Assembly (NCBI GenBank): GCA_038895375.1
Contig: JAWANM010000004.1
Span: forward strand, 1-44,394
Source: Candidatus Pacearchaeota archaeon
GTDB lineage: Archaea > Nanobdellota > Nanobdellia > Pacearchaeales > UBA284
Length of the DNA stretch: 44,394 nucleotides
Reading direction: 5' to 3'
Shown here one piece after another: positions 2,958-44,394 of the stretch. The notes beneath the pieces are model-generated. The model did no database searches and was not told where the DNA came from. It worked only from the letters and a program-made list of their open reading frames with translations. Made by a program: the position numbers and the translations under genes. Numbering within the stretch: the first letter of the stretch is position 1; the number at the start of each line of letters is the position of its first letter.

Positions 2958-3010
2958 GTTCTCTATAGGAAGAAAGAATTTAAAAATCTTTCCCTCTAAA
3001 TAGGGAAACC

Positions 3011-4531
3011 TTAGAACCGCCTCATCAATTCAAAATCTTCTTTTGATACGCCTTTTATAATCCAAAGAGCAAAGAAATAGACAAGAACAGCTGCTATGAT
3101 CATTAAAATTCCAGTCAGTATGTTAAGATTCACGAAATAATCAAAAGCAAAAAGAAAAGCAAGCACGATTGCTGAAGCTAGCAAGGGTTTTGCTATTGAA
3201 GCTATATTTGCTTTTATCTTTAGCTTTTTTCTTGCCAGCACAGCAAGACCTGCCATGTTGCCATATCTAACAAGTAAAGTTGCGAAAGCAACAGCAACCA
3301 AGCCGTATTGAGGCGCTATCAAGAGGCCGGCTTTTATGAAAGCGTAATTTAAAATTATGTTGGCTATTGTCGCTATAATAATTAAAACAGCAGGAATTTT
3401 TGGCTTTTCTTTTGCTTGAAATAAAGCTGCATAGACAGGAGAAAAAGCCGATTCGATGACGAGCAAGCTAAGCAACGCAGAAGTCAGTGTTATCGCTAGC
3501 TCGTATTGCACTGGCACATAAGCCTGACCATAAATAATTTTAATTGCAGGTACAATAGCATAAGCCAAGCCTATGGCTGCGGGAATTGCAATTAAAGCGG
3601 TATAATGAAAAACTTTTTTAAAGCCTCTTTCGATACGGCTTTTTTCAAGTTGTGTAAAGACAGGCAATAGCACTGAGCCAAAAGCGACAAAGCTAGCAAC
3701 AGAGCCGACAATAGCGAAGATGGCATGATAAAAGCCAACAAACTCTGCTGGCAAAAATATACCTAGCATGAAAGTATCGACATGAACAAAAAAAATAAGA
3801 GAAATACTGCTAATGGTTAGCCAACTAAAAAAACCCAACAATCTTTTTTTCTCCTCAGCACTAAGCTCTTGTTTTTCGCCTTTAATCAAAAATCTGTATT
3901 TAAGAGAAAGTATAGAAAAAAGAAAAGCGCAAGAAATAGAAATGGCTATAGACAAAGCAATAAAAACACTTTCTACATTCTTGTAGAATGAGAAAAAAAT
4001 TAAAACCAATGCAATTCTCGAAACTTGAAAAATTATTTCAGTCAAAGCATTATACTTTACTTTTTGCACTGCAAAGAAAATAGAAGTTAAGAAACCTTGT
4101 AAAGATATGACAAACAAGTAAATAGCGCCGATTTGTAAAGGCAAGATAAGTGAACTTTTATTGAATATATAAATTGCAATTTGTTTAGCAAAGGAAAAAA
4201 GTAAAAAAGCAATTATTGCGGTCAAAAAGATTTTAAAATTGAATAAAAAAGCTATCCTTGCTCTTGCTTCTTTTTCTGCTTTCTTTTTCTTTAGCGATTC
4301 TGCAAGATATCTTATGAGCGTTGCATTAAGACCGAGATCTGTAAAAGTTGCGATCGTAAAAATAATTGTCAAAGCAAGATTATAGATACCGAAAAGCTCT
4401 GGAAAAAGAAATCTTGCAACAATGATTGTAAAAATCAAAGCACCTATTCTGCTTATCAAAGTTGTAAGAAAGTTATAAAATACATTCTTTAGAACTTTGT
4501 GCTTTAGATTGTTTTTTAAAATTTTTGTCAT
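3011..4531 (-). CDS. Polysaccharide biosynthesis/flippase protein (MOP/Wzx-like multi-pass membrane protein)
   Basis: 506-aa ORF, hydrophobic throughout with about 12-14 helices and an N-terminal pattern typical of oligosaccharide flippases. The call rests on family resemblance only. Confidence 0.7.
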   Translation of the reverse strand: MTKILKNNLKHKVLKNVFYNFLTTLISRIGALIFTIIVARFLFPELFGIYNLALTIIFTIATFTDLGLNATLIRYLAESLKKKKAEKEARARIAFLFNFKIFLTAIIAFLLFSFAKQIAIYIFNKSSLILPLQIGAIYLFVISLQGFLTSIFFAVQKVKYNALTEIIFQVSRIALVLIFFSFYKNVESVFIALSIAISISCAFLFSILSLKYRFLIKGEKQELSAEEKKRLLGFFSWLTISSISLIFFVHVDTFMLGIFLPAEFVGFYHAIFAIVGSVASFVAFGSVLLPVFTQLEKSRIERGFKKVFHYTALIAIPAAIGLAYAIVPAIKIIYGQAYVPVQYELAITLTSALLSLLVIESAFSPVYAALFQAKEKPKIPAVLIIIATIANIILNYAFIKAGLLIAPQYGLVAVAFATLLVRYGNMAGLAVLARKKLKIKANIASIAKPLLASAIVLAFLFAFDYFVNLNILTGILMIIAAVLVYFFALWIIKGVSKEDFELMRRF

Positions 4532-13236: not shown

Positions 13237-13344
13237 TGCTCCCGGCAAGATTCGAACTTGCGACCTTCAGCTGGCTCCTGAGCTTTAGCTCTTAGGAGGT
13301 TCAGCCATCGAGTCTGCTGCTCTATCCAGCTGAGCTACGGGAGC
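13237..13344 (-). tRNA. tRNA-like gene with a 34-nt intervening sequence; isotype not resolvable by hand
   Basis: Perfect acceptor (GCTCCCG/CGGGAGC, discriminator A), D arm (GCTC-AGCTGGATA-GAGC), variable loop AGGTC and T arm (GCAAG-TTCGAAT-CTTGC). 51 nt lie where 17 are expected. See finding. Confidence 0.6.
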
Positions 13345-19990: not shown

Positions 19991-20086
19991 TGCGGGAGAC
20001 AGGATTCGAACCTGTGCAGGCACTAAGCCATACGGTTTCCACCATAGGCCTTAGCCGTACCCGTTTGACCGCTCCGGCACTCCCGC
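19991..20086 (-). tRNA. tRNA-Leu (class II) with a 12-nt intron; apparent anticodon AAG
   Basis: Acceptor, D arm, variable arm and T arm are nearly identical to the tRNA-Leu at 14505..14588. The anticodon stem TACGG/CCGTA encloses 19 nt (CTAAGG-CCTATGGTGGAA-A). Removing 12 nt at the canonical 37/38 site (plus-strand 20037..20048) leaves the loop CTAAGGA. Confidence 0.8.
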
Positions 20087-25412: not shown

Positions 25413-25497
25413 TTTCGATTTTTTTAAAAATATATTTAGTGCCGTTGGAAGGTAGTATATTATTTATTTTTTGACTTATCAGTATAATAACAATTCC

Positions 25498-27360
25498 TTA
25501 TTTTTTAAATACTAGTATATCTTCTACATAGATTTTTCCTTTATCGGCTTTTGAAAGACCATGCTGTATGACATTCGCTAATTCGAACCCTTCAGATTTA
25601 CCTAAATCAGCTATTATTGGTGAAGTATCTATTCTTTGTTCCTTCCCATTTATGCTCCAAGTATGGTATTTGCTGACAACCATTAGATATAATTTATTTT
25701 TTTTCAATACCCTATAGCACTCTCTAAAAGATAATTTCATCATTTTTAGATAATTTTCGACGATAAAGGCTTTCATAGATCTTTTAGATTTCTTTAACAT
25801 TTCAATAAGTCTCATGCTGGATGCAGGTAGTTGTATGGTTTCGTAAATTTTCATAAAAGATGGCAAACCTTTATTGTTCCTAAAACAAGAATCATAAAAA
25901 TCTTTTGTGGATCCGTATTTTAAATCATCATCAAAACCTAAAATTATGATTGAGACTTTGTTGTTACCTACGTAATCAAGAGCATCAAAATATGGTGGTG
26001 ACGTTAAAATACCGTCTATGGACGAATCTTTTAAAAAAGACATATCAGTAGAATCTGCTCTGATTATATCTACATTACCTTTAGAGAGATTAATATTAAG
26101 TTTCTCAGCCAGTCTGTAAGTAGCATAAAGTGTCAAATACCTATCCTCTACATATGTCTTAAAAGACGTTAAAAAATCTAACAAACGTTTTTTTTCACTA
26201 TACTCTACTATTTTTTGACTTAAAAGAACCAAAAGAAAATTTTTAATTTTTTCTTCTTTTATTTTTTCTATTTCATTTTTCAAAGAAATTATAGCAGGGA
26301 TATGTGGAGAAATATTTTCATATAGCTGTGTTCCAATTGTGTGTGCTTTTATTTTTTCTTTTATATTTGTTATTTCTTTATCTAGTTCGTTATAATCGAT
26401 TGTTTTTGGCAAATTAAAAATTTTTATTATTTCTTCTCTTAGTTTTTTGATGTTGTAATCTAATCTGCATTTTACGTTAGAAATAAGTTGACCGATTTTT
26501 AAAATCTCGACACCGATGACATTTATTCCCATTGCCGGAGCGTCTGCTATGAATGCTCCTGAGCCTACAAAAGGGTCAAGAATTGTGTCGCCTTCGTTAA
26601 CTCTTAAAAGATTTATTAGAGCTCTAGATATTCTAGGGTCGCCTTTGCCTTTGTATTTATGTAAATAATGCAGGAATGGTTTTCTTAAGTCAGTAGATGT
26701 CCAATCGATAAAATCTCCAATATGGGTTTTGCCTAGCCCAAAATGAGGAGAGCGATAGTGTCCTGTTTGAAGGTGGGATATCATTTCATCTAATCCTTGA
26801 TCAATTCCTTTTTCTTTTTCTTCAAAATATTCTAACCAGTTGCTATTGTTTCTAGGTTTAAACACAACGGTGGGTAATTTTTTCACCTCAGATGCGTATT
26901 CAAAAAGAGTATGAACAGGAATTATTCTGACTGTAATTAATTTTTTTGATTCCATCTCTTTTAAAAATACTTGAATGTAAGGATTTATGAAATTGTTAGT
27001 TGGTACGTATTTAATTCCTAAGGAGTTAAAAAGATGATGCAAATTGTTTCCATCAACTTCGCTAATAGCATAAATTTCTCTAAAAAATGTGGCTTTTTTT
27101 GCTATATTAATTATATCACAAGATTCCACTTTTGCTAAATATCCTTGTACCTCTCCTAAATATAATAACCTTGTGATTAAATGTATTACTTCATCGTCTA
27201 ACTGATTAAATGGCCTACTTTTAAAAATAGATGGGATGGTCTTAATGGGTTCTACTTTCACACCTAATATGCTCTCTATTTCATGCTTCGCAAAATGAGC
27301 TTCGTCAGGATCTCTTAAGTCAAATTTAATTTTTGCTATGATGAATATGTCATATACCAT
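25498..27360 (-). CDS. SAM-dependent DNA methyltransferase (N4-C/N6-A type) with an atypical architecture
   Basis: 620 aa. SAM motif I is ILDPFVGSGAFIADAPAMGINVIGVEI at about aa 255-285. Catalytic motif IV is ILTSPPYFDALDY at about aa 450. The two are separated by a roughly 170-aa Lys/Glu-rich helical insert. A roughly 250-aa N-terminal domain of unknown type precedes them. Confidence 0.75.
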   Translation of the reverse strand: MVYDIFIIAKIKFDLRDPDEAHFAKHEIESILGVKVEPIKTIPSIFKSRPFNQLDDEVIHLITRLLYLGEVQGYLAKVESCDIINIAKKATFFREIYAISEVDGNNLHHLFNSLGIKYVPTNNFINPYIQVFLKEMESKKLITVRIIPVHTLFEYASEVKKLPTVVFKPRNNSNWLEYFEEKEKGIDQGLDEMISHLQTGHYRSPHFGLGKTHIGDFIDWTSTDLRKPFLHYLHKYKGKGDPRISRALINLLRVNEGDTILDPFVGSGAFIADAPAMGINVIGVEILKIGQLISNVKCRLDYNIKKLREEIIKIFNLPKTIDYNELDKEITNIKEKIKAHTIGTQLYENISPHIPAIISLKNEIEKIKEEKIKNFLLVLLSQKIVEYSEKKRLLDFLTSFKTYVEDRYLTLYATYRLAEKLNINLSKGNVDIIRADSTDMSFLKDSSIDGILTSPPYFDALDYVGNNKVSIIILGFDDDLKYGSTKDFYDSCFRNNKGLPSFMKIYETIQLPASSMRLIEMLKKSKRSMKAFIVENYLKMMKLSFRECYRVLKKNKLYLMVVSKYHTWSINGKEQRIDTSPIIADLGKSEGFELANVIQHGLSKADKGKIYVEDILVFKK

Positions 27361-27361
27361 C

Positions 27362-28216
27362 TTAGACGCCTTTATCTATGTTGAAAAGATCGCAAGGTTT
27401 TATTTTAAATTGCAATTTAGTGGGGTCTGGCGTACCGCCTTTTCTTTGCATTGTTATTCTACCAATGTATAGATTGCCTTGAGGTGAAATTTTAACGTCA
27501 CCTTGACCAAAGAAATTCATCACAGTATTTATGTCTTTCAATACCCACGCAGTAGTATCTTTACTCTTGTCATATTTTGTAACTAACATCCAATCAGCTG
27601 AGAATCCGCCTCGACCTTTTAAAATGTCGCTTACTATTAGAATTTTATTTCTTTTAAAAAAATCTACTATTTTATCTCTTAGTATATCATTAAGCTCGTC
27701 TAAAAATACCCTCTTTTTATCTCTAAGATTTTGAATATTTACTTTTAATTTACCTGGATATTTCGCTGGCGGGATTTCTCCTGTAAATAACTTTAGCCCT
27801 ATCGCTATTTCGTCATCAAAGTTCCACATTTCTCTATAAGAATCCACCCATCGTTTATCTACCTGGTTATAGTCTGCATCAGAGTTAGCTTTCTTCAAAG
27901 ACAAATTTTCGATTTTTAACATATCGTTGATCTTAATTAAAATTCGTATTTGAACTTGAATATCTGCTTTTTTAAATTTCATCAAAGCCTCATACTCGTT
28001 TTCGTTAAATCCGAACTCTTTGACTTGCGTCCTTTTAATTCGAGCAGGAATTTGTATGGCTTTAACATTTTGGATATCCTTAATTTTGTATCCCATTATT
28101 GAAAGCCATATCTTTGCCTCTTCATCCATCTTCCATTTATTAAATTTTTCGCATACTGCTCTTTCATTTGCAAATCCTCCCCTGGCGACTCTGGAACCAA
28201 AATCAAAATTATACAT
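27362..28216 (-). CDS. Putative type II restriction endonuclease (weak MspI/HinP1I-like pattern)
   Basis: The track ORF extends to 28309, but Met32 (ATG at 28216) starts 1 nt after the stop of the upstream remnant. Candidate catalytic region KADIQVQI...IENLSLKK. The C-terminal ...GGTPDPTKLQFK recalls the QFK tail of MspI/HinP1I (from memory). Its stop lies 1 nt from the methyltransferase start. Confidence 0.45.
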   Translation of the reverse strand: MYNFDFGSRVARGGFANERAVCEKFNKWKMDEEAKIWLSIMGYKIKDIQNVKAIQIPARIKRTQVKEFGFNENEYEALMKFKKADIQVQIRILIKINDMLKIENLSLKKANSDADYNQVDKRWVDSYREMWNFDDEIAIGLKLFTGEIPPAKYPGKLKVNIQNLRDKKRVFLDELNDILRDKIVDFFKRNKILIVSDILKGRGGFSADWMLVTKYDKSKDTTAWVLKDINTVMNFFGQGDVKISPQGNLYIGRITMQRKGGTPDPTKLQFKIKPCDLFNIDKGV

Positions 28217-28217
28217 T

Positions 28218-28652
28218 TTATTTTTCGCCTTTTTGTTTGTGTTTGCTTTTCTTTTCAAGTAGCGCTCTATATCTCTTCTTAAATCTATTAATAATAATTT
28301 CCACCTCAAAATTCTCCTTCCCGAAAATCTCGTCCATTAAACTTCCATCAGGATTTTTTAATTTCCCGGCTTCTTTCCAAAGCAATAGTTCTTTAAGAAC
28401 TTGTAAATTATTTCCGAAAATAATCATGTTATACCACCCGTCGTCTTTTATCTGACCAAATGTTTTAACTCTCCGAAGAGAAACAGCCATAGTATCTGTT
28501 ATTATATCAATACCTCTTTCTTTTCCAAAATAAACTAATTCGGTCTTTTGTTTTCCTTCAAATAAAAACCATTTGAATTCCTCTGGTAATGGTTTACCTT
28601 CTTTCAATCTTTCAACAATGAATTTTATTTGTTCGTCTGCTCCTTCTTTCAT
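28218..28652 (-). pseudogene. Remnant of a Mod-type (type III/IIG) adenine methyltransferase lacking the catalytic core
   Basis: 144 aa. GWYNMIIFGNNLQVLKELL matches the usual N.LI.GDNL..LK.L segment that precedes DPPY. It runs almost directly into ...GSLMDEIFGKENF, a segment that normally lies well downstream of the core. No DPPY or FxGxG motif is present. Confidence 0.55.
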
Positions 28653-28720
28653 TTTCTCATATCAAAAATAATTAATATTTTGCCTTTTTAATTCTTTATT
28701 CTTTATTTGCTTTTATAAAA

Positions 28721-29533
28721 TTACAGCTCATCCAAAGGATTTTTAACTTTTTTTAGTTCTTCTGTTGTTAGATGAGTATAAAGCTGTGTGGTGCTTAATG
28801 ATTCGTGCCCTAGCAAGGCTTGAATTTTTCTTATATCTGTTCCCGAGTCAAGCAAATGAGTAGCAAAAGAATGTCTCAAGCAGTGTGGTGTTACTTTCTT
28901 GTTGATTCCTGCTTTCTTTGCTGCAAGCTTTATTATTTTTTGTATGTTCCTTGTTGTCAATGGCTTTTCTCTTGACAAAAGATATTGTCTTCCAGGTTCT
29001 TTAACATATGGTTCAAGCTCTTTGATTAATTTCTCTGGCAGTATGAAAATTCTATCTTTTTTACCTTTTCCCTTGCGAATCCAACCTATTCTTTCTTGTA
29101 AGTCGATATCGTTGCACTTCAAGTTTACAAGTTCGCTTACGCGCATTCCTGTCGAGTATAATAACTTAATGATAAGCTTTGATTTTTTTGTTTCTGCACT
29201 TTCGATAAGCTTCTTAACTTCCTCTTTTGTTAAAACTTCCGGCAATTTTTTTTCTTTTTTCGGCAACTTTAGGGTTATGGGTTTTTTTAAAATTTCGGAA
29301 AAAAAGAACTTCAAAGAGGCTGCTGCTAAAGCGATGGTGCTCTGTGACTTTTCAAGCAAAGAAGCAAGAAAATTCTTTGCATCTTGCTCATTAAGCTCTT
29401 CTATTTTTTTGTTCGATGTTGTAAGAAATTTTCTTATGAACCATGAGTAATTGCGAATAGTAAAATTACTAGATCCTCTTAACTTAAGCTCTGCTCTTAG
29501 CTCGTTCAATATAGCTTCAAATTGGTTTTCCAT
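28721..29533 (-). CDS. Tyrosine recombinase/integrase (XerA/XerC/D-like)
   Basis: 270 aa. N-terminal SAM-like core-binding domain, and a catalytic domain with R...(TGMRVSEL), HCLRHSFATHLL, LGHESLSTTQLYTH (R-H-R-H/Y pattern). Confidence 0.9.
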   Translation of the reverse strand: MENQFEAILNELRAELKLRGSSNFTIRNYSWFIRKFLTTSNKKIEELNEQDAKNFLASLLEKSQSTIALAAASLKFFFSEILKKPITLKLPKKEKKLPEVLTKEEVKKLIESAETKKSKLIIKLLYSTGMRVSELVNLKCNDIDLQERIGWIRKGKGKKDRIFILPEKLIKELEPYVKEPGRQYLLSREKPLTTRNIQKIIKLAAKKAGINKKVTPHCLRHSFATHLLDSGTDIRKIQALLGHESLSTTQLYTHLTTEELKKVKNPLDEL

Positions 29534-29652
29534 CTTTAGCTTTTAAAACGAACTTGTTTATAAATTTTTATCGAAATCTTTTCCACGCAAAAAAGAGACC
29601 CTTTTTTTAATTAATTTTTTAAAATTATCTTTAAATAGTTTTAATAGAGCAA

Positions 29653-30294
29653 ATGAAATTTAGAATCGCTACGCCTGAAGAGGAAGCTATTGTTTTGCTA
29701 TCGCTTATAAAGCAAAGGCCATGCCCTGAATTGGTTTTAGCAAGCAAAATCCCTATTTCAAAGAAAGACTACATAAAAATAAAAAAATCTCGAAGAATTA
29801 AAGAAGTGTTGCCTATAATCAAGTCGTTAAAATCTAAAAATAAAAATATTGAGGAGATAAAGTTGAAAATAGAAAAGGAATGGAACCTTAATAAAAAGAT
29901 TCTTGAGAAAAAGTTGAATAAATTCGGCATAAAAATTAATAATAAGATAAAAGTTGTTTTGATGCCTCATATAAGATACGGGCTTTACAATCCCAATAAA
30001 GGAATAATTTATGTTCCTTTTAAATGTAAAATTTCATTAATTCTTCACGAACTTATCCATATTTGGTTTTGGAAAAATATTCAAAGATTTGGTATTGAAA
30101 AAAACAAGGCAAGTTGGCTGGTTTCAGAAGCTTTAGCTTCATTAATATCTCAGGAAATTGGTCCAAAATATAAGACTGATTTTTGTAAAGAAATTGCTCC
30201 TTATCGAAAAAAACTTAAAGCTTTATGGAAAAATAAAAAGCTAGCTATTTTTATAAAAAATGCTTACAAAGAACTTAGAAGTCGTTCTAAATAA
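29653..30294 (+). CDS. Hypothetical protein with an HExxH metallopeptidase-like motif
   Basis: 213 aa. LILHELIHIWFW is the only recognisable motif. Confidence 0.4.
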   Translation: MKFRIATPEEEAIVLLSLIKQRPCPELVLASKIPISKKDYIKIKKSRRIKEVLPIIKSLKSKNKNIEEIKLKIEKEWNLNKKILEKKLNKFGIKINNKIKVVLMPHIRYGLYNPNKGIIYVPFKCKISLILHELIHIWFWKNIQRFGIEKNKASWLVSEALASLISQEIGPKYKTDFCKEIAPYRKKLKALWKNKKLAIFIKNAYKELRSRSK

Positions 30295-30299
30295 CAAAT

Positions 30300-31120
30300 T
30301 TTGCATAAAAATGTGGTTCGCTTAATATACGTTGTGCGAACTTTTTCTTGATTTTATATTATTAAAACGAACTTTTTAATATCTGTCTAAAAGTTTTAAG
30401 CGATGGCAAAAAGTTTTAAGCTAAGGTTTTAGACTAAGTTTGGCTTTTTATTTGCTTTTCTTGCTTTATCTTGCTTTAGCTTTTGGTTTCTTAAATCCTT
30501 TTTGTTTTTTGTTTTTTTTTCGTTTTTTCTTTTGTGTTTGAAACTTTTAGTTTTGAAACTTCTATTTTAATTTTTCAAAAGATTATATTTTTGAGCTTAA
30601 AATGTTGAACACATTTGATCTAAATTAATCACAAATTTTAATCGCTTAAATCTTTTTGCTATTGTTTTATAGCCTCAAGCTTTGCTAGCTTAGTTTTAAT
30701 TGTTATTTAAAAATTTAAAGCGAACTTGGTTTTTTTAATAAACCCTGGTTTTTCAGTTGTTTTTTAGGTTTTGCTGTTTTTGCTATTCTTCTCTTGCTTG
30801 CTTTTTGTTGTTTTTCTTACTTGCTTTTTGCTTTTTTGATTTTGTTGTTTTTGCTTTATGCTAAATAGTTTTTTATAAGCAATTACTAATAGTTTATAAG
30901 CAATGACTTGCTGCAAGCTTAAGTTGATGTGCTTTTATCTGTGTTTTGAATTGCAAGACCTTAAGCGTACAAATCATTAAGCATATGGTTTTGATATAAA
31001 TTTTAAAAAGTTGCTTGAAAATAAAATTTTAATAAACTTTAATCTTGATTTTACTTTAATCTTGATTTGCTTTTGCTATGTTTTTTTAGAAAAATTTAAA
31101 AATCAAAAAAAACATAGTTT
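30300..31120. repeat. ORF-free repeat field: TTAAGC/GCTTAA hexamers, GTTCGCTT(T)AA motifs, several short tandem direct repeats, T/G-skewed TTGCTTT runs
   Basis: No track ORF lies within it; only the tail of the rejected 31096..31320 ORF overlaps its right edge. TTAAGC/GCTTAA start at 30320, 30396, 30416, 30595, 30644, 30917, 30961 and 30977. AAAAGTTTTAAGC occurs twice (30389, 30409). TTTGAAACTT occurs twice (30537, 30552). TTTATAAGCAAT occurs twice (about 30873, 30893). ACTTTAATCTTGATTT occurs twice (31036..31051, 31053..31068). Confidence 0.7.
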
Positions 31121-31123
31121 TGC

Positions 31124-31741
31124 ATGGGTTTTTTATGGTTCGGTAAAAAAAGAGACGAACTAAAAGAGATTCGCGAATCTTTTGAAAATATTAAACAAGA
31201 TATGATGCATATTTCTGGCTGGATTAAACACCTGAACGCAAAAAATAAACACCTAGAGGCAAGTTTTGAAAACCTTTCAGAAGAAATTCTAAAAATTAAG
31301 GAAGATATCGACGATATCAAAAGCAGTCTTTTGATGCTAAAAACAATTGATAAGCGAAGGGTGTTTAAACACCAACAAACAGGTGTTTATAAACAAACAG
31401 GTGTTCAAGGTGTTCAAACACGTGTTCAAACAGGTGTTCAAACACCTTTATTTGATGAAATTTTGAAAAATTTGACTTCATCTGAAAGAGTAATTGTTTG
31501 GATTTTGTTGAATAGTGACCTTAAGCTGAGTTGTGAAGATCTTGCAGCCTTGCTAGGGAAGCAAAAAAACACAATTCGCGGACAGATAAACAGCATAAAG
31601 CAGAAAAGTGAGAGTTTGCTTGAGGAGGTTCTTGAAAAAAATGGTAAAAAAAGGTATTATATAAATGAAAAAGTGAGAGAAATTTTAATGAGAAGTTTAA
31701 AGAAAAAAGCTAAGCAAAAAAGAAAAAGTGAGAGTTCGTAA
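31124..31741 (+). CDS. Coiled-coil / Q-T-G-V repeat linker / C-terminal winged-helix protein
   Basis: 205 aa. N-terminal heptad-like region; the linker QTGVYKQTGVQGVQTRVQTGVQT is encoded by about 12-nt tandem DNA repeats (about 31380..31445). C-terminal wHTH-like region: LTSSERVIVWILLNSDLKLSCEDLAALLGKQKNTIRGQINSIK. Confidence 0.55.
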   Translation: MGFLWFGKKRDELKEIRESFENIKQDMMHISGWIKHLNAKNKHLEASFENLSEEILKIKEDIDDIKSSLLMLKTIDKRRVFKHQQTGVYKQTGVQGVQTRVQTGVQTPLFDEILKNLTSSERVIVWILLNSDLKLSCEDLAALLGKQKNTIRGQINSIKQKSESLLEEVLEKNGKKRYYINEKVREILMRSLKKKAKQKRKSESS

Positions 31742-31913
31742 ATTTGAAAAGTTCGCTTTAATTAAATAAGAAAACTTAAAAAACTAAAAAAGAGAGTTAA
31801 AGGTTCGAATACTGTATATTGTACTAAAATTTAAGATCAACACAAAATGTTGTAGTTTTTTCGATTTTTTCAATTGTTTTTTAGCTAGGATAAAAATATT
31901 CGGTTAAACGATT

Positions 31914-32576
31914 TCAATATTCATCAGCCCTTATCTTAGCAAGAACATCTAAAGGCATTAGCTCTCGAAACTCACGAGGAACTTCTAAAAGTATTTGTTT
32001 ATTGTTCAGCTTTTCTCTTATAATTGGAACTCCTTTTTTGATAAGTCTTAAAACATAATCGCGTACAGAACTTTCGCTTAAATTTGTTTTTAGCGCGATG
32101 TCTTTATAAGTTACTTTTCTTTTTTCGCTTAAAATGTAAAGTGCTGAAAAAATAAAAAATTCCTGTTTTGTTAGATCTTGAAACTTTCTTTGAAAAAACT
32201 TAAGATTGTTGATAATCGCTTCTTTTGATTGTGAGCTAGAAACATAAAAAGTTCGCTTTAATTCGTCTGTTGGTTGTCTGTTGAGTGTCTGTCTGTTTGT
32301 CTGTTGGTCTGTTGGAACCCCTTCATTTCCTGTGGAACTTTGGAAATTAAGGCTTAATTCTTCGTTTTTTGCCATTTTTGCAAAACCGGATGTGTCGATG
32401 TGTTGGATTTTCTGTTGGAATGTGTTGGATTCTTGAATTTGCTTTATTTGAGCCAAAAAAGAGTAAATCTGATCAACTTGAGCTTTCAAAAGATTAATTT
32501 CTTGCTTCAATTCAAAAATGTCTTGCTTTACTCTATCAAAAGCCTCTTTTAGTTTGTCTGTCATTTTAAAAATCAC
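31914..32576 (-). CDS. Paralogue of 31124..31741: coiled-coil / Q-T-N-R-rich linker / C-terminal winged-helix protein
   Basis: 220 aa with the same three-part layout. The wHTH-like region reads LTKQEFFIFSALYILSEKRKVTYKDIALKTNLSESSVRDYVLRLIKKG. It is convergent with its paralogue. Confidence 0.55.
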   Translation of the reverse strand: MIFKMTDKLKEAFDRVKQDIFELKQEINLLKAQVDQIYSFLAQIKQIQESNTFQQKIQHIDTSGFAKMAKNEELSLNFQSSTGNEGVPTDQQTNRQTLNRQPTDELKRTFYVSSSQSKEAIINNLKFFQRKFQDLTKQEFFIFSALYILSEKRKVTYKDIALKTNLSESSVRDYVLRLIKKGVPIIREKLNNKQILLEVPREFRELMPLDVLAKIRADEY

Positions 32577-32854
32577 AAAAGCGGTTTTGCTAAAGACTTA
32601 TATGCTTCATAAGCTTTATTAGAAAGGCGCCATCTCAAGCGTCTAGTGTATTCTTTACCTTGATTGTTTTTCTTAACGCTCACTACAAGATCTTTGGCCT
32701 CAAGATCCAGCAAGAGTTTCTTAATGTATTCTTCGTCACGGGCAAGCTCTTTTGCAATTTGAACTGTAAATAGCATCTTTGGAGAATTTTGAAAAAGTAA
32801 ATGCAATATTGCTTCTTGAATTTTCTTTTCTTTTTCTTTATTGATTCGTGGCAT
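32573..32854 (-). CDS. Small winged-helix DNA-binding protein (93 aa)
   Basis: ILHLLFQNSPKMLFTVQIAKELARDEEYIKKLLLDLEAKDLVVSV... has a typical wHTH layout. Its stop overlaps the start of the downstream paralogue gene by 4 nt. Confidence 0.55.
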   Translation of the reverse strand: MPRINKEKEKKIQEAILHLLFQNSPKMLFTVQIAKELARDEEYIKKLLLDLEAKDLVVSVKKNNQGKEYTRRLRWRLSNKAYEAYKSLAKPLL

Positions 32855-38303: not shown

Positions 38304-38523
38304 CCCTGCAACCCCTTTGTTTCTTATGGAAAGATTTATAAAGAAATGCTTTTTGGTGGTTTTTTATTATTTATTTAAAAATTTTTATATACTGTAATGC
38401 ATATAATGAAGTATATAATTTTTTCTTGTGAGCATTTCCATAGGAAAAAAAGCTTTTTCTTTAGTTTCTTTAGAATAACATCATCGTCGATTTTTTGGTG
38501 CAAAGGAAATGAAGGTGGGGAAG
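38304..38523. promoter_or_regulatory. Candidate chromosomal replication origin: two inverted ORB-like elements flanking an AT-rich unwinding region, upstream of orc1/cdc6
   Basis: ORB-like 1 (38304..38333) on the minus strand reads CTTTCCATAAGAAACAAAGGGGTTGCAGGG. ORB-like 2 (38497..38523) on the plus strand reads GGTGCAAAGGAAATGAAGGTGGGGAAG. A mini-ORB-like CATTTCCATAGG lies at 38433..38444. The stretch 38361..38425 is almost pure A/T. Confidence 0.55.
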
Positions 38524-41346: not shown

Positions 41347-41351
41347 TTAAA

Positions 41352-44300
41352 ATGCAAGAGTATTTTAAAGAAATAGAAAAAAAAGTAAAGGAGGCTTATG
41401 AGATTGCGAAAGAAGCGAGACTTAAAGGATACGATCCTAAAGAAAAAGTGGAAATAGATCTTGCCACAAGTTTGGCACAAAGAGCAATCGGTTTGGTTTC
41501 TTTAATGTACCCTCAACTTAAGGGAAGTAAAGTTGAGGCAAGAATCAAAGAACTTGAGGAGCAATATGGCTTTCTCGATCCTGCAGTAGCATTGAAAATT
41601 GCTGAAGAAGTTGCCAAGGAAAAGTTTTGCAAGTTTCGCAGTTTGCTTGAAGCCATGGATGCTGGGATTCGTTTAGGATTCGCATACTTAACTTTAGGAA
41701 TAGTTGTTTCACCTCTCGAAGGACTTACTCATATCAAAATTAAAAAAACAAGAGACGGCAAGGATTACATAGCAGCATACTATTCGGGCCCGATAAGGTC
41801 TGCAGGCTCTACAATGGCAGGTTTTTCGTTAATAATTATAGATCATCTACGAGAAATTTTTGGCTTTGCCAAATATGATCCTACAGAAGAAGAAATTCGT
41901 AGAGGCATTACAGAAATTTACGACTATCACGAAAGAATAACCAACTTGCAGTATCTTGCTTCTGAAGAAGAACTGGATTTTTTATTAAGGCATTTACCTA
42001 TACAAGTTGATGGTTTGCCTTCCGAAGACAGGGAAGTGAGCAACTATAAAGATTTAGAAAGAATCGAAACGAATTTTCTTAGGAATGGTTTTTGTTTGGA
42101 AATTTCTGAAGCACTGGCACAAAAAGCGCGTAAGCTTGTTCCTAGAATAAAAAGTTTGCGAGAAAAAGGATTTAAGTTGAGCGATTGGGACTTTTTGGAA
42201 GAATTTGTTGCTTTACAGAAAAAGATTACAGAAAAAAAGAGAGAAGAAGAAGCAACGGATGTTTACATTCAAGATGCTGTAGCCGGAAGGCCTATTTTTG
42301 GACATCCTTCGAGAAGCGGAGCTTTTAGATTGCGTTATGGTAAGTGTAGGATGAGTGGTTATAGCGCTGTTGCCTTAAATCCAGTAACGATGAAAGTACT
42401 CGGAGATTTCATTGCAATAGGAACTCAACTAAAACTAGAAAAGCCTATGAAAGGAGCTGCTGTTGGAGTTTGTGATACTATAGATGGGCCTATAGTTAAG
42501 CTCAAGAACGGCTCTGTAAGAGCTTTGAAGACAATGCAACAAGCTGAAGAATGCTTAGAAGAAATAGAGGAAATTCTTTATGCTGGCGATATTCTTATTA
42601 GTTACGGAGATTTTTATGATAGAAATCATGTTCTTTTACCTTGTGGATATTGTCCAGAATGGTGGTATGTCGAAGCGAAAGAAGCTTTGAAGTATAAAAA
42701 TAACGATGAAATTGAGAAGTTGCTAAAACAAAAAGTTAGTCTTGAGGAAGCAATCGAGATAAGCAAGGCTTTGAATGTTCCTTTACATCCTGATTTTATT
42801 TTTTTCTGGTCTCAGCTTGATAAGGAACAATTTTATTCTTTGCTAAGCTGGCTCGGTCATGCAGAAATTCGTGAGGACAAGCTTGTTTTGCCATTTTCAA
42901 GTATGGAAAGAGTAAAATGGCAAAAAGCCAAGAGAGCTTTGGAAATTGCAGCTATAGAGCATGAAGTTGCTACGGCGCATGTTATTCTTGAGCAACCAAC
43001 ATGGAGAGCTCTTTTTAGCAACTTGGGACTTGATGAAAATAATTTCAAAGAAAAAGTAAGAGAAGAAGCAGAACAATATGCTAATTCGAATCAAGATGTT
43101 CTCGATTTTATCAATACTATTTCTGAATTTAAAATTAAGGACAAAGCAGGAAGTTTCATAGGTTCTAGGATGGGCAGGCCAGAAAAAGCGAAGCCAAGAG
43201 CATTAATAGGTTCGCCGAATGGTTTGTTTCCAGTTGGCGAACAAGGCGGTAAGATGAGAAGCGTCCAGGCAGCTCTTGAGGTTGGAAGCGTTAAAGCAGA
43301 TTTTCCAATATACTATTGTGAAAATTGCAATAGAGAAACAATTTATCCCGTGTGTGAAGTTTGCGATAAAAAAACAAAAAAGAGGTTTTATTGCTCTAAA
43401 TGTGATAAGACTTTGAATACAGATTTTTGCGAATTGCATGGCAAGGCACAATCTTTCATGACGCGAACTATAGACATCAAACATTATTTTGATGCGGCTT
43501 TTAAAAAGCTGAATTCTAACAACAATCAAAGTAAGATCAATCCGAAGCTTGTTAAAGGAGTTAGGGGAACAAGCTCGCAAGACCATATACCGGAAAATTT
43601 ATGCAAAGGCATTCTTAGGGCCGCTTTTGGTTTAACTGTAAACAAAGATGGAACGGCTCGCTTTGATGCCACAGAATTGCCTTTGACACATTTCAAACCA
43701 AAAGAAGTTTGTGTTAGCATAGAAAAACTTAAAGAACTTGGTTATACTCATGATATAGAAGGAAGAGAACTAACCAATGAAGATCAGCTTCTTGAAATCA
43801 AACCTTGCGATCTTATCTTGCCTTGCTGTCCAGAGTCTTTGGACGAAACCGCAGACGATTTCTTCTTTAGGGTGGCGCAGTTTGTTGACACTTTGCTTAT
43901 TAGATTTTACGGAATGAAGCCTTACTATAATTTGAAATCTAAAGAAGATCTAGTAGGTCATCTTTTGATTTTTATTGCTCCTCATAATGCTGCTGGCGTT
44001 GTCGCTAGGATTATAGGGTTTAGCAAGACACAAGCTTTTCTTGCATCTCCTTTTCTTCATGCAGCTGTTCGCAGAGACGCAGATGGCGACGAGGCTGGCG
44101 CGATGTTGCTACTTGACGCATTTATAAATTTTTCACGCGACTTTTTGCCAGCTCATCGAGGGGCAACTCAAGACTCGCCAATAGTTTTGAACTCGAGACT
44201 TCGCGCTAACGAGGTCGACGAAATGGTTTATAATGTAGATGTTGTTAAAGAATATCCTTTAGAATTCTACATGGCAGCTGAAAAAAGAATGATGCCTCGT

Positions 44301-44394
44301 GACGTTAAACTTTTACAAATTTCAGACAGAGTTAAATTCGGAGATAAAGCTTTTGAGAATATTTTTTTCACTCATGAAACTTCAGACATAAATG
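41352..44394 (+). CDS. polD2: DNA polymerase II (PolD) large subunit DP2; 3' end runs off the window
   Basis: Absent from the ORF track because no stop lies in the window. From the ATG at 41352 it reads MQEYFKEIEKKVKEAYEIAKEARLKGYDP...YYSGPIRSAGSTMAGFS...RPIFGHPSRSGAFRLRYG.... It has Zn-finger clusters (CENCNRET..CEVCDKK) and ...ASPFLHAAVRRDADGDEAG.... The frame is open to the window end. Confidence 0.9.
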   Translation, partial: MQEYFKEIEKKVKEAYEIAKEARLKGYDPKEKVEIDLATSLAQRAIGLVSLMYPQLKGSKVEARIKELEEQYGFLDPAVALKIAEEVAKEKFCKFRSLLEAMDAGIRLGFAYLTLGIVVSPLEGLTHIKIKKTRDGKDYIAAYYSGPIRSAGSTMAGFSLIIIDHLREIFGFAKYDPTEEEIRRGITEIYDYHERITNLQYLASEEELDFLLRHLPIQVDGLPSEDREVSNYKDLERIETNFLRNGFCLEISEALAQKARKLVPRIKSLREKGFKLSDWDFLEEFVALQKKITEKKREEEATDVYIQDAVAGRPIFGHPSRSGAFRLRYGKCRMSGYSAVALNPVTMKVLGDFIAIGTQLKLEKPMKGAAVGVCDTIDGPIVKLKNGSVRALKTMQQAEECLEEIEEILYAGDILISYGDFYDRNHVLLPCGYCPEWWYVEAKEALKYKNNDEIEKLLKQKVSLEEAIEISKALNVPLHPDFIFFWSQLDKEQFYSLLSWLGHAEIREDKLVLPFSSMERVKWQKAKRALEIAAIEHEVATAHVILEQPTWRALFSNLGLDENNFKEKVREEAEQYANSNQDVLDFINTISEFKIKDKAGSFIGSRMGRPEKAKPRALIGSPNGLFPVGEQGGKMRSVQAALEVGSVKADFPIYYCENCNRETIYPVCEVCDKKTKKRFYCSKCDKTLNTDFCELHGKAQSFMTRTIDIKHYFDAAFKKLNSNNNQSKINPKLVKGVRGTSSQDHIPENLCKGILRAAFGLTVNKDGTARFDATELPLTHFKPKEVCVSIEKLKELGYTHDIEGRELTNEDQLLEIKPCDLILPCCPESLDETADDFFFRVAQFVDTLLIRFYGMKPYYNLKSKEDLVGHLLIFIAPHNAAGVVARIIGFSKTQAFLASPFLHAAVRRDADGDEAGAMLLLDAFINFSRDFLPAHRGATQDSPIVLNSRLRANEVDEMVYNVDVVKEYPLEFYMAAEKRMMPRDVKLLQISDRVKFGDKAFENIFFTHETSDIN

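Follow-up and report, generated by a model that had tools for sequence, protein, structure and literature searches.

The window, by which we mean the whole 44,394-nt stretch of DNA analysed here, is a piece of the chromosome of a Pacearchaeota (DPANN) archaeon. Along it lie a ribosomal-protein operon, the recombinase gene xerA, a long non-coding field, three wHTH genes (p205, p220 and p93), lhr and the cdc6-polD genes. The order of xerA, the field, the three wHTH genes and cdc6/polD is kept in more than 80 species-level genomes. No boundaries of an integrated element interrupt this synteny; only an R-M cassette inserted at 25.4-28.7 kb and the segment at 29570-30288 are strain-specific. The features of the central part of the window are collected in Table 1.

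The recombinase scores 266 bits against the NCBIfam model NF040815 (recomb_XerA_Arch), which has a cut-off of 220, and its closest PDB structures are those of XerA, 5HXY (2e-52) and 4A8E (2e-50). Its homologues number in the thousands at 60-79% identity. As XerA is so highly conserved, a conserved target site is to be expected.

For p205, 1,883 homologues were found at E <= 0.001, and those with names belong to MAGs of the Pacearchaeota/Woesearchaeota type. The exact p205 sequence is not on record, and a 99% relative, P0001, served as its stand-in; Foldseek searches with the AlphaFold model returned AbfR2 and MepR as best matches. The DNA of the p205 linker carries four exact copies of the 10-mer TGTT(C/T)AAACA (31362-31444), a feature backed by motif and codon-bias analysis. 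This palindrome occupies p205 coding DNA here and upstream non-coding DNA in other lineages; in distant loci it is enriched upstream of p205 together with the 24-nt TTTGTGCACTTAGGTTAGCTTAGT, and the field of the window has neither.

Table 1 Features between xerA and p220, in coordinates of the window.
Feature	Position	Strand	Basis or context
xerA, tyrosine recombinase, 270 aa	28721..29533	-	Pfam Phage_integrase and SAM-like N-terminal domain
Right-arm-like half-site TTAAAACGAACTTGTTTATA	29543..29562	+	Between xerA start codon and likely TATA box
Strain-specific insertion/replacement, ~720 bp	29570..30288	+	Absent from L001-L003
213-aa ORF with HELIH motif	29653-30294		Carried by the insertion
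dif-like core, 28 bp, followed by a T-run	30315..30342	+	PWM, register test, conservation
Putative accessory right-arm direct copy TTAAAACGAACTTTTT	30362..30377	+	31 nt downstream of core right arm
Two AAAAGTTTTAAGC near-palindromes (30389 and 30409, period 20), then CTAAGGTTTTAGACTAAGT	30389..30441	+	Alignments
Fast-evolving spacer, T/G-rich, A-tract-rich, strand-asymmetric	30442..31035	.	Tandem Repeats Finder, repeat search
10-nt periodic TTTATCTTGC array	30447-30482		Spacer
TTTGAAACTT x2, period 15	30537-30568		Tandem Repeats Finder
Inverted half-site TTAAAGCGAACTT	30715-30727		Spacer
23/27-nt repeats	30771-30837		Spacer
TTTATAAGCAAT x2, period 21	30872 and 30893		Spacer
Perfect tandem 17-mer ACTTTAATCTTGATTTT x1.9, candidate operator	31036..31068	+	Tandem Repeats Finder, 100% match
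Putative core promoter (BRE/TATA-like TTTTTAGAAAAATTTAAAAA) of p205	31083..31102	+	21 nt before ATG
p205: coiled coil, disordered linker, C-terminal MarR/Lrs14-like wHTH	31124..31741	+	AlphaFold, Foldseek
p220: coiled coil, linker and wHTH as in p205	31914..32576	-	Pfam HTH_24
Left-arm-like 17-mer AAAAGTTCGCTTTAATT	32246-32262		Inside p220
In-frame ORB in p220	32318-32336		ORB PWM score 46.4

Composition and motif content of the field

At ~830 bp (30295-31123), the field is the longest non-coding stretch of the window, as an initial annotation of the sequence had proposed; the other apparent gaps, at 1-1676 and 41347-44394, are taken up by ORFs that continue past the ends of the window. Its bases number 405 T, 219 A, 112 G and 93 C, with 45 T-runs of at least four and 13 A-runs. 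All eight of the TTAAGC/GCTTAA hexamers reported by the annotation were found (TTAAGC at 30396, 30416, 30961 and 30977; GCTTAA at 30320, 30595, 30644 and 30917), and its estimate that fewer than one would be expected also holds. Judged by the rest of the window, eight copies in 829 bp compare with 0.79 expected (Poisson P = 1.8e-6), and the hexamer ranks first in enrichment among ~2,030 reverse-complement-collapsed hexamers (Bonferroni P ~0.004). Much of this excess fades when the expectation is drawn from the field itself, rising to 2.3 copies under a first-order Markov model (P = 0.0035), 3.1 under a second-order model (P = 0.02) and 5.0 under a third-order model (P = 0.15). Local composition accounts for part of the TTAAGC excess.

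GTTCG/CGAAC occurs 12 times in 29534-32300 against 2.5 expected (P = 1.4e-5), and AGTTCG/CGAACT nine times against 0.93 (P = 6e-7). Because the excess of TTAAGC is modest against the field's own composition, the GTTCG-type motif outranks it as a signal. Longer forms are present as GTTCGCTT at 30316, TTAAAGCGAACT at 30715 and AGTTCGCTTTAA at 31750 and 32250. The CGAACTT cores at 29549 and 30368 lie exactly where they had been placed, the one given as 30338 starts at 30337, and a further copy lies at 30721; none of the annotated motifs or tandem pairs is more than 1 nt from the position first given for it. The four short tandem pairs are likewise real, three with periods of 20, 15 and 21 and the fourth a 17-mer. 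This last had been described as a perfect 16-mer repeated twice and ending about 55 nt before the gene at 31124; the repeat stands, with the unit corrected to a 17-mer present 1.9 times and ending 56 nt before the ATG. A TGTTCAAACA array was also counted among the elements of 29.5-32.9 kb.

A conserved 28-bp inverted repeat between xerA and p205

The GTTCGCTTAA and CGAACTT motifs noted earlier form the two arms of an imperfect inverted repeat that spans 28 bp in 11-6-11 geometry, comprising a left arm GGTTCGCTTAA, a spacer TATACG and a right arm TTGTGCGAACT. This core has a PWM score of 44.4, where the next best site in the 44-kb window scores 14.0 and shuffled sequence reaches a maximum of 14. 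It is identical in strains L001-L003 (L numbers denote the loci compared). A search of the 10-20 kb around each of 81 non-redundant loci found one strong site (PWM score 24-44) per locus in 49 of them. All 49 sites are non-coding and on the + strand, with p205 downstream and, where the locus includes xerA, with xerA upstream. The remaining 32 loci gave no strong match; many of these have too little upstream sequence, and some have enough. In distant loci too, nhmmer with the 140-nt block as query gave + strand hits that precede p205 (2e-13 in L012 and 7e-8 in L024, for instance).

Across 40 sites, 78% of cells are complementary in the 11-6-11 register, compared to 32-42% when the register is slid by 1-3 nt. 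A mean of 7.2 of the 11 arm positions are complementary. In L067 and L086 a GTTCG>GTACG change is paired with CGAAC>CGTAC/G, so that the symmetry is kept. The right arm is strongly conserved and the left arm degenerate; the two agree at only 9 of 11 positions in the window, and the left arm is much weaker in many loci. The aligned core reads GTTCGCAyAA-TATATC-TTGTGCGAACTTTT, with inner arms (T/C)AA-N6-TTG. The A of column 12 and the TT of columns 20-21 are invariant, and the G of column 22, where known dif sites carry A, is 90% conserved. The annotation's proposal that this is protein-binding, cis-acting DNA adjoining genes for DNA-binding proteins is supported, and the GTTCGCTT/CGAACTT motif, conserved across species-level relatives, is the functionally constrained element. 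A metagenome scan with the 15-mer CTTGTGCGAACTTTT gave, among the matches listed, mostly chance hits in unrelated contigs of higher GC, the only relevant ones being L111, L194 and perhaps L144, L159 and L161.

In L001-L003, L005, L014, L018, L055, L058 and L194 the site precedes the xerA start by 40-120 nt. In the window the two are separated by the insertion at 29570..30288, in place of which L001-L003 have ~51 unrelated nt; the ORF within it has no match in Pfam, PHROG or NCBIfam. The genes between xerA and the site also vary in 14 other loci, where they are of housekeeping or accessory type and encode a HAD hydrolase, TspO, TrkA-N, GrpB, SNase, a nucleotidyltransferase and an HNH-like nuclease; L023 has a second recombinase there. 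The interval is variable and is not obviously mobile-element DNA. An IMEX-type structure at 29570-30288 was considered and is not supported, as the left edge has no second full site, only the half-site, a putative accessory element that the strains without the insertion (L001-L003) carry too. In CP070794.1, xerA lies ~20 kb from the site and has no site within 10 kb of it. Overall, the synteny of the site with the p205 trio is tighter than that with xerA. In the window and 12 further loci, the distance from the site to cdc6 and its AT-rich region flanked by ORBs is 3.6-8.3 kb, which puts the site next to the presumed origin and not at the terminus.

DNA between the site and p205

Beyond the strain level, the field is conserved in only two parts, a ~130-nt left block that includes the core and the ~20-nt stretch before p205 that, from archaeal promoter architecture, we take to be a likely core promoter. 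In the left block, the direct copy TTAAAACGAACTTTTT is kept at the same spacing in L005 and has equivalents in L012, L013, L015, L006, L076 and L083. The block with the AAAAGTTTTAAGC pair, which contains two of the eight TTAAGC copies, is conserved in L005, L012, L087, L024, L018, L007 and L076. The putative promoter is conserved in L005, L087, L010-L020 and others.

The spacer holds five of the eight TTAAGC/GCTTAA copies, and its A-tract density of 0.42-0.46 is the maximum of the window (0.26 +/- 0.07). BLAST found no similarity between this spacer and L005, and the alignments to L005 and L087 contain no conserved stretch. The middle ~640 nt varies in length, has indels between close strains and shows a substitution rate ~3x that of the flanking genes. 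Gaps upstream of p205 are nevertheless longer (P = 0.004) and richer in A-tracts (P = 5e-4) than other gaps of the same loci. The 17-mer tandem has one mismatch in L001-L003 and is not conserved in L005 or L087; a similar motif, CTTGATTTT, is repeated upstream of the p205 homologue of L011.

Interpretation of the site

Our preferred reading, which we hold with slightly better than even confidence, is that the 28-bp site is the chromosome-dimer resolution site (dif) of XerA, equipped with accessory half-sites. The field is the large intergenic DNA that separates the housekeeping xerA from the conserved coiled-coil wHTH gene p205, with the ~720-bp insertion of this strain also lying between them. 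XerA protomers would occupy both arms, of which the right is presumably the high-affinity one, and the degenerate left arm would set the order of strand exchange. Two copies of the site on a chromosome dimer would synapse, and XerA would cut at the borders of the spacer, with a Holliday junction and strand exchange then leading to monomers. The ~100 nt to the right of the core, with the TTAAAACGAACTTTTT copy and the AAAAGTTTTAAGC pair, are probably a binding place for additional XerA or for a partner. The other ~640 nt are poorly constrained and may act only as a structural or chromatin platform, like the DNA flanking dif in Thermococcus kodakarensis, and the last ~90 nt would combine the candidate operator with the predicted core promoter of p205.

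That the site is more tightly syntenic with p205 than with xerA also fits an operator for the wHTH proteins. The palindrome and half-sites could form an operator array for p205, p220 and p93, or else an autoregulatory XerA site controlling xerA and p205, in either case with no recombination. Both the orientation of the site and its synteny with p205 are kept even where xerA is 20 kb away. The MarR/Lrs14-like wHTH modelled for p205 belongs to a class that binds palindromes as dimers, and p220 gave weak Lrs14/Sul12a matches. Arm-like copies recur at the 5' end of xerA (29543), just past the stop of p205 (31747) and within p220 (32246), and GTTCG-type words are 5-10x enriched over 29.5-32.3 kb. 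However, the site precedes p205 by 400-2,500 bp, frequently with intervening genes, and the 11-6-11 layout, the asymmetrically conserved arm and the likeness to the bacterial XerC arm and dif spacer are hallmarks of the core sites of tyrosine recombinases rather than of MarR operators. We consider this reading without recombination unlikely.

It seems improbable to us that the field is part of the replication origin, serving as an AT-rich unwinding or auxiliary region together with the ORB in p220 and those at cdc6. A+T makes up 75% of the field, T-tracts are plentiful, cdc6-polD lies 7 kb away, and both gene orientation and cumulative GC skew switch at this point; the skew simply tracks the coding strand across the whole window, so we did not use it as a replication signal. 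A canonical ORB does lie 1.2 kb off, inside p220, in every relative. It is in frame at 78 of 78 loci, and its Ser codon is TCC in all 78, against 10% background use. Three loci (L052, L067 and L080) also carry a + strand ORB upstream of p205. The window's own field, in contrast, has no ORB or mini-ORB. The best hits of the ORB PWM are only those at 32314, 38308 and 38433, with none in 30295-31123, and TTTCCATAGGAAA is absent from the field with up to two mismatches allowed, so a Cdc6-type origin within the field was rejected. Directly upstream of cdc6, the inverted ORBs at 38308 and 38433 flank 102 nt of 81% A+T, giving the textbook ORB-DUE-ORB origin at 38305-38520, and the sequence of the field is not conserved.

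We think it quite improbable that gene decay produced the middle of the field, or that this part is junk with slippage repeats; in either case its motif excess would be a compositional accident. In ~35 loci a ~95-aa membrane-protein gene lies divergently upstream of p205, the middle is unconserved and indel-prone, and the TTAAGC excess drops to P = 0.02-0.15 under higher-order local composition. Weak tblastn matches of the membrane-protein family at 30948-31010 (E = 0.06-0.9) seemed to point to a former gene. However, an HMM of the family detected no trace of one in any of the field's reading frames, so this candidate was rejected. Long, A-tract-rich gaps upstream of p205 also recur across lineages more than other gaps do, and this reading leaves the conserved left block unexplained; where only the middle is concerned, it conflicts little with the dif reading.

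Two proposals of the initial annotation are not supported. Small non-coding RNAs, to which the length of the field, its lack of ORFs, its TATA-like TTTATAA motifs and the possible resemblance of palindrome and T-run to a hairpin and terminator might point, are very unlikely, given that Rfam has no family match in the field at the gathering threshold or at E <= 1, that ten 150-nt tiles fold on both strands no better than shuffles (z-scores -1.7 to +0.7), that G+C is 25% compared to 38-46% in the RNA-bearing gaps of the window, that 22% of arm cells are unpaired in the 40 sites with one arm far more conserved than the other, and that the middle is not conserved.

The other proposal reads the field as the iterons, the centromere or the operator array of a plasmid or virus that has integrated. 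In its favour are the clustering of three wHTH genes with an R-M system and a gene for a tyrosine recombinase, and the strain-specific nature of the R-M cassette and the 213-aa ORF. The proposal is scarcely credible, as the recombinase is the housekeeping XerA and stands with the field and the wHTH trio in fixed chromosomal synteny with ribosomal-protein genes and cdc6/polD in the >80 genomes. Among the genes scanned there is no Rep/replication-initiator or ParA/partition-ATPase gene, and PHROG matches are absent or marginal. Viral contigs scanned with AATNNNNNCTTGTGCGAASYWTT gave nine matches, none with a matching left arm (PWM 7-18) and thus no true copy of the site. The field has no iteron- or centromere-like array of at least three like-oriented 15-25-bp copies, only two-copy tandems of four different units, none of them conserved in L005 or L087. 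Relatives whose p205 protein is 72-76% identical lack conserved counterparts of the T/G tracts, of the 17-mer tandem and of the TTAAGC copies other than the two in the conserved left block.

Building on the dif reading, a wider one can be proposed, tentatively and with low confidence, in which the locus is a composite, origin-proximal chromosome-maintenance hub across DPANN archaea of the Pacearchaeota/Woesearchaeota type. Its modules would be xerA, the dif-like site with accessory arms, the A-tract DNA, and the two coiled-coil Lrs14-like wHTH genes, whose linker codons would double as cis-acting DNA. Within a few kb of oriC, the hub would then physically couple the resolution of dimers to origin recognition and to a role as a centromere-like element or chromatin boundary, and the wHTH proteins would recognise DNA within the very genes that encode them, as with bacterial parS, which sits in parB/spo0J.

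If the 28-bp site is indeed a dif, it would be to our knowledge the first candidate for DPANN archaea; our literature search found no paper naming DPANN together with dif or XerA. It would offer a ready motif to anchor and orient fragmentary Pacearchaeota/Woesearchaeota MAGs. Origin-proximal dimer resolution would depart from the terminus rule of bacteria and Thermococcales, and would be relevant to the choice of time and place for dimer resolution in organisms that lack FtsK. With its long A-tracts, the flank echoes the dif-flanking SMC domain boundary in Thermococcus and raises the question of an ancient link. Finally, the ORB and palindrome arrays embedded in wHTH genes would make the overlap of coding and cis-acting DNA at an archaeal origin testable.

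Comparison with known systems

The consensus left arm AGTTCGCATAA agrees with the XerC arm GGTGCGCATAA of E. coli dif, taken as in PMC3025954, at 9 of 11 positions, and the consensus as a whole agrees with that dif at 19-20 of 28. Identity to the T. kodakarensis dif TTTTGATATAATGTACCTTATATGACAA (PMC11840125) is 15 of 28, where accepted archaeal dif sites range over 14-18 of 28 (Cortez et al., PMC2958812). The spacer pattern TRYAYC likewise compares with TGTATA and TGTACC. The archaeal Xer/dif systems of Pyrococcus abyssi, Thermococcus kodakarensis, Thermoplasma acidophilum and Sulfolobus likewise have a single XerA and an intergenic, species-conserved 11+6+11 imperfect inverted repeat, share the inner-arm pattern A(T/C)AA...TT(G/A)T, and show comparable similarity to bacterial dif (PMC2958812, PMC11840125). 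The most conserved archaeal dif feature is TAA-N6-8-TTA (PMC11840125). In the present site, by contrast, the outer arms are GTTCGC/GCGAAC and not GGATAT/ATATC, and the inner right arm has TTG for TTA. The arms are also unequally conserved and accompanied by extra arm-like half-sites, and the candidate lies 4-8 kb from cdc6/oriC, not at the terminus.

A terminus location is not universal among archaeal dif sites, and the dif of Sulfolobus lies elsewhere. Bacterial and Thermococcales dif sites lie in the terminus region, and haloarchaeal ones elsewhere (PMC11840125). Archaeal xerA/dif modules have been described (PMC5357621); the haloarchaeal dif is placed ahead of the xerA operon (PMC11840125). 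The haloarchaeal modules, XerS/difSL of streptococci and XerH/difH of Helicobacter, all of them single-recombinase systems, resemble the present locus in having the site by the recombinase gene and asymmetrically conserved arms (PMC5357621, PMC11840125). XerS/difSL and XerH/difH are FtsK-dependent and near the terminus, whereas here the linkage to xerA is broken in some genomes, CP070794.1 among them, and that to the wHTH genes is kept.

At cer and psi, which are plasmid multimer-resolution sites, a Xer core is joined on one side by ~100-200 bp of accessory DNA that binds proteins for resolution selectivity. The likeness lies in the one-sided accessory DNA, which here is putative, chromosomal, only ~100 nt long and furnished with arm-like repeats. 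The field also resembles an archaeal oriC in being AT-rich, repeat-rich and close to cdc6 and ORBs, although it contains no ORB itself.

The T. kodakarensis dif lies in a 1.9-kb A-tract-rich intergenic region, and at the boundary flanking it TrmBL2 and A-tracts stall Smc-ScpAB (PMC11840125). No TrmBL2 was identified at the present locus, where the neighbours are Lrs14/MarR-like with coiled coils; the flanking genes converge in T. kodakarensis and diverge here, and the flanks are not conserved in sequence. The two loci are alike in that the dif, or dif-like site, sits in an unusually long, A-tract-rich intergenic region, with wHTH-type chromatin proteins as candidate binders of its flanks.

Gene neighbourhood of the field

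An archaeal ribosomal-protein and RNA-polymerase operon occupies 18.7-23.6 kb of the window, and Orc1/Cdc6 followed by PolD DP1 and DP2 is encoded from 38576 onward. The tRNA genes at 13237-13344 (108 nt) and 19991-20086 (96 nt), which were detected by Rfam and missed by ARAGORN, probably contain introns, judging from gene length; these two long genes were the earliest hint of an archaeal organism. The best protein matches all come from Candidatus Pacearchaeota and Woesearchaeota-type MAGs. Taken together, the tRNA introns, the operon, the cdc6-PolD genes and the protein matches mark the window as a chromosome segment of a low-GC DPANN archaeon.

The recombinase to the left of the field has the XerA proteins of T. 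acidophilum and P. abyssi as its closest solved structures (E ~1e-50, full length) and scores 266 bits with the curated NCBIfam equivalog for archaeal XerA, above the cut-off of 220; it is XerA. To the right, the order and orientation of the wHTH genes p205(+), p220(-) and p93(-) is kept across 80 species-representative genomes, with xerA(-) upstream and lhr and/or cdc6-dp1 downstream of the trio, and variation is confined to what lies in between. In CP070794.1, a complete genome, xerA has the neighbours that it has in the window, a Cas4-like gene and the ribosomal-protein operon. xerA and the wHTH trio are core chromosomal genes. The restriction-modification (R-M) cassette is missing from the 99%-identical strains L001-L003 (L numbers denote related loci), and is a strain-specific insertion; a second such insertion, 29570-30288, lies on the other side of xerA. 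In place of the latter stretch these strains have ~51 nt and lack the 213-aa ORF, so that xerA and p205 are divergent neighbours 876-918 bp apart.

Features of the window in and around the field, and at the predicted origin
Feature	Position	Strand	Sequence or remark
R-M cassette	~25413-28720		DNA methylase (620 aa), R.HinP1I-like endonuclease (315 aa), 144-aa ORF
xerA	28721-29533	minus	tyrosine recombinase
213-aa ORF	29653-30294		HELIH motif, no family match
Field	30295-31123		between 213-aa ORF and p205
Conserved left-end block	30300-30441		~120-140 nt; aligns with L087 and L005
Left arm	30315-30325		GGTTCGCTTAA
Spacer	30326-30331		TATACG
Right arm	30332-30342		TTGTGCGAACT
Right-arm copy	30362-30377		TTAAAACGAACTTTTT; same spacing in L005
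Predicted p205 promoter	31083-31102		TTTTTAGAAAAATTTAAAAA; 21 nt before p205 ATG; aligns with L087 and L005; recurs in many loci
p205	31124-31741	plus	
p220	31914-32576	minus	wHTH
p220 ORB	32314-32340 (in frame at 32318-32336)	minus	GTTCCACAGGAAATGAAGGGGTTCC; peptide STGNEGVP
p93	32573-32854	minus	wHTH; followed by Lhr helicase, PRPP synthetase, phosphoesterase, tRNA-Ser, then cdc6
Predicted oriC, ORB with G-string	38308-38334	minus	TTTCCATAAGAAACAAAGGGGTTGC
Predicted oriC, core	between ORB 38308-38334 and mini-ORB		102 nt, 81% A+T
Predicted oriC, mini-ORB	38435-38447 (PWM match from 38433)	plus	TTTCCATAGGAAA
Predicted oriC, ORB-like	38505-38520		GGAAATGAAGGTGGGG

Motifs and conservation within the field

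The field is the longest non-coding stretch in the window, as the initial annotation had stated; two larger gaps in the ORF list are ORFs running past the window ends, the right-hand one being PolD DP2. The motifs picked out by eye were also recovered. TTAAGC/GCTTAA occurs eight times within 829 bp. Of four two-copy tandems (periods 20, 15, 21 and 17), the 17-mer is perfect and stops 56 nt short of the p205 ATG (31124). Motifs of the GTTCGCTT type are found at 30316, 31750 and 32250 and, as the reverse complement, at 30715, and CGAACTT cores at 29549, 30337, 30368 and 30721. Relative to the rest of the window, TTAAGC is strongly over-represented (8 copies where 0.79 are expected, P = 1.8e-6; first of ~2,030 hexamers); with the composition of the field itself as reference, the excess is modest (2.3-5.0 copies expected, P between 0.0035 and 0.15 by Markov order). 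The GTTCG/CGAAC family is the more telling signal, with 12 copies across 29.5-32.3 kb where 2.5 are expected (P = 1.4e-5).

Divergence among close strains amounts to 2.8-3.1% of aligned positions in the field, which has 28-62 gap positions, and to 0.8-1.0% in xerA and p205, which have none. Loci L087 and L005, whose p205 is 72-76% identical, have long intergenic gaps too (~660 and 800 bp), and just two pieces of the field align with them: the left-end block and the sequence before the p205 ATG. The latter, TTTTTAGAAAAATTTAAAAA, is built like an archaeal BRE/TATA promoter and would serve p205. The middle ~640 nt is unrelated to L005 and L087 in sequence, length and even strand composition, being T/G-rich in the window and A-rich in the other two. 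The T/G tracts, the TTTGAAACTT pair, the TTTATAAGCAAT pair, the inverted half-site and five of the eight TTAAGC/GCTTAA copies all lie in this middle part. Just to its right, the 17-mer tandem shows no conservation in the L005 or L087 alignments.

A palindromic core with dif-like geometry

With the window/L005 block as query, nhmmer gave plus-strand matches upstream of p205 in many distant loci, including L012 (2e-13), L024 (7e-8) and L021 (4e-7) as well as L073, L018, L077, L038, L015, L007 and others. The aligned block has a sharply conserved core, GTTCGCAyAA-TATATC-TTGTGCGAACTTTT, in which two 11-bp arms, mutual reverse complements, surround a 6-bp spacer. A position weight matrix (PWM) for this site found one strong match per locus (24-44 bits, where shuffled sequence peaks at 14) in 49 of the 81 non-redundant loci; the single match in the window scores 44.4 and its runner-up 14.0. 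Strong matches lie on the plus strand, always upstream of p205 and, wherever the locus includes xerA, downstream of that gene. In one locus, L085, the same palindrome scores slightly higher on the reverse strand. Complementary cells make up 78% of the total in the 11-6-11 register over 40 distinct sites, and 32-42% when the register is slid by 1-3 nt. The right arm is almost invariant whereas the left is degenerate (mean 7.2/11 complementary positions), and paired changes are seen on both arms, such as GTACG with CGTAG in L067 and L086. Because 22% of cells are unpaired, one arm is far better conserved and there is no folding signal, we read 30315-30342 as a DNA palindrome that binds protein, not as a hairpin of an RNA; the same observations argue against the small RNAs suggested in the initial annotation.

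A weak second dif-like sequence, GGTTCGAATAC-TGTATA-TTGTACTAAAA, lies between p205 and p220 (31802-31829); it has the spacer of E. coli dif, a PWM score of 14.0 (null level) and arms complementary at 5/11 positions. In L074 (~3700-3830), an N run (masked or scaffold gap) directly follows the dif-like site, with a duplicated TTGTACGAAGTTCTTACACATAAAAGTGGT on either side, and may reflect an assembly problem at a repeat.

Candidate accessory arm-like elements and the A-tract flank

A direct copy of the right arm recurs ~30-45 nt downstream of the core, as TTGTGCGAACTTTTT in L013, L015, L076 and L083. It is followed by two AAAAGTTTTAAGC-like near-palindromes, 20 nt apart, which are also seen in L005, L012, L087, L024, L018, L007 and L076. 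In many loci the left arm is preceded, at a distance of 12-30 nt, by an arm-like copy. The other GTTCGCTTTAA copies that had been listed are further arm-like half-sites (29543, 30715, 31747 and 32246), the first lying between the start codon and the likely TATA box of xerA. Such elements could bind extra XerA or a partner. Accessory DNA next to the Xer core makes resolution selective at cer and psi. Cortez et al. (PMC2958812) described conserved flanks, and inverted repeats, surrounding dif in Thermococcales. An identical left-arm-like 17-mer, AAAAGTTCGCTTTAATT, is found just past the p205 stop codon (31747-31763) and in p220 linker-coding DNA (32246-32262), where a repeat array of the CAACAGAC type (32265-32313) adjoins it.

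The rest of the field has the top A-tract density in the window (0.42-0.46 vs a mean of 0.26 +/- 0.07), a strong strand asymmetry (45 T-runs vs 13 A-runs) and a 10-nt periodic array at 30447-30482. Across loci, the gap that ends at p205 exceeds other gaps in length (median 293 vs 213 nt; at least 500 nt in 24% vs 5%) and has more A-tracts (0.40 vs 0.33, P = 5e-4). This long, A-tract-rich gap recalls T. kodakarensis, where the intergenic region around dif measures 1.9 kb. There it is the flanking DNA, and neither dif nor XerA, that is bound by TrmBL2, a wHTH chromatin protein, and that stalls Smc-ScpAB, and efficiency correlates with A-tracts (PMC11840125). The p205 protein comprises a coiled coil, a disordered linker and a MarR/Lrs14 (AbfR2)-like wHTH, and p220 gives weak matches to Lrs14/Sul12a/Sta1; both are plausible candidate binders of the A-tract flank. 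It is equally possible that the middle of the field is almost unconstrained, slippage-prone DNA.

Origin recognition elements and other arrays

Directly upstream of cdc6, 38305-38520 has the textbook architecture of a canonical oriC. A further origin recognition element (ORB), GTTCCAyrGGAAATnnnGGGGTTCC, lies in frame in the disordered linker of p220 in 78/78 loci, some of which carry two copies, 43 nt apart. Its Ser codon is TCC in 78/78 (10% background use) and one Gly codon is GGG in 75/78 (14% background), and residues at non-conserved ORB positions vary freely (T/I/K/N and E/K/G/R/D/Q). Because the codons are invariant while residues at ORB-neutral positions vary, the constraint acts at the DNA level. 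The element is similar to P. furiosus ORB1 (TTCCAGTGGAAATGAAAC...GGGGGG in reverse complement), and an intragenic location of ORBs is known from Pyrococcus dp1 (PMC1904270).

The linker codons of p205 form an array of TGTT(C/T)AAACA, with four exact 10-mers at 31362-31444. Across loci its density is 3.45/kb within p205 vs 0.04/kb elsewhere, and 1.25/kb in the 600 nt upstream of p205 in distant lineages only (L027-L086); the linker Thr codon is ACA in 92% of cases vs 48% elsewhere in the gene. This suggests coding sequence that doubles as an array of candidate binding sites. About 35 more distant loci (L026-L086) carry 1-4 direct plus-strand copies of the ~24-nt TTTGTGCACTTAGGTTAGCTTAGT between the dif-like site and p205, at ~400-600-bp spacing (0.69/kb vs 0.03/kb elsewhere), for example at 3381, 3787, 4164 and 4662 in L058 and at 3691, 4151 and 4627 in L067. 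The copies alternate with small (~95-aa) membrane-protein genes, giving the appearance of a cassette array; none is present in the window or its close relatives. The p220 ORB, the p205 array and the TTTGTGCACTTAGGTTAGCTTAGT copies suggest a composite cis-acting hub near the origin, and are possibly more novel than the field itself.

Identity of the field

With slightly better than even confidence, we read the field as the xerA-linked dif locus of a Pacearchaeota chromosome, comprising accessory arms, an A-tract flank that evolves fast, and the promoter of p205. Alternatively, the palindrome may be an operator alone, a reading favoured by its synteny, which is tighter with the wHTH trio than with xerA. 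An origin within the field is contradicted by its lack of any ORB, the canonical origin lying just upstream of cdc6 instead; a non-coding RNA by the Rfam and folding results; and a decayed gene by the profile search of the membrane-protein family. The integrated replicon of the initial annotation is at odds with the XerA identity and with the chromosomal synteny of xerA and the wHTH trio in the 80 genomes, and of that interpretation the cis-acting DNA stands and the replicon, iterons and small RNAs fall.

The dif-like site lies 3.6-8.3 kb from cdc6 in the window and 12 other loci, beside the presumed origin and not at the terminus. This is atypical for dif, and lowers our confidence in the dif reading while raising its interest. 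As archaea to our knowledge lack FtsK, and dif is, so far as we know, not at the terminus in every archaeon, an origin-proximal position does not exclude dimer resolution. If it is a dif, this would be a known kind of site in an unusual position.

Comparison with known dif sites

The geometry of 30315-30342 fits the definition by which archaeal dif has been searched for (PMC2958812): imperfect inverted repeats of 11 bp around a 6-bp spacer, in intergenic DNA and conserved in related genomes. The consensus shares 9/11 left-arm positions and 19-20/28 overall with E. coli dif, GGTGCGCATAA-TGTATA-TTATGTTAAAT (PMC3025954), and 15/28 with T. kodakarensis dif, TTTTGATATAA-TGTACC-TTATATGACAA (PMC11840125); with P. 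abyssi dif, ATTGGATATAA-TCGGCC-TTATATCTAAA (PMC2958812), it has the inner ATAA...TT.T in common. In place of TAA-N6-8-TTA, described as the best-conserved archaeal feature, the consensus here has (T/C)AA-N6-TTG. In sequence, the resemblance is comparable to that of accepted sites.

The distance to xerA varies. In L023 the first xerA homologue is separated from the dif-like site (3827) by a second Xer-like tyrosine recombinase gene (2822-3649, minus), which starts ~180 nt from that site. The site is 40-120 nt upstream of the xerA start in L001-L003, L005, L014, L018, L055, L058 and L194; in other loci varied genes spanning 0.4-3.5 kb intervene, and in CP070794.1 the separation is ~20 kb. Where xerA and the site adjoin, the arrangement is of the same kind as the xerA/dif modules known from some archaea and from bacterial systems with a single recombinase (PMC5357621, PMC11840125).
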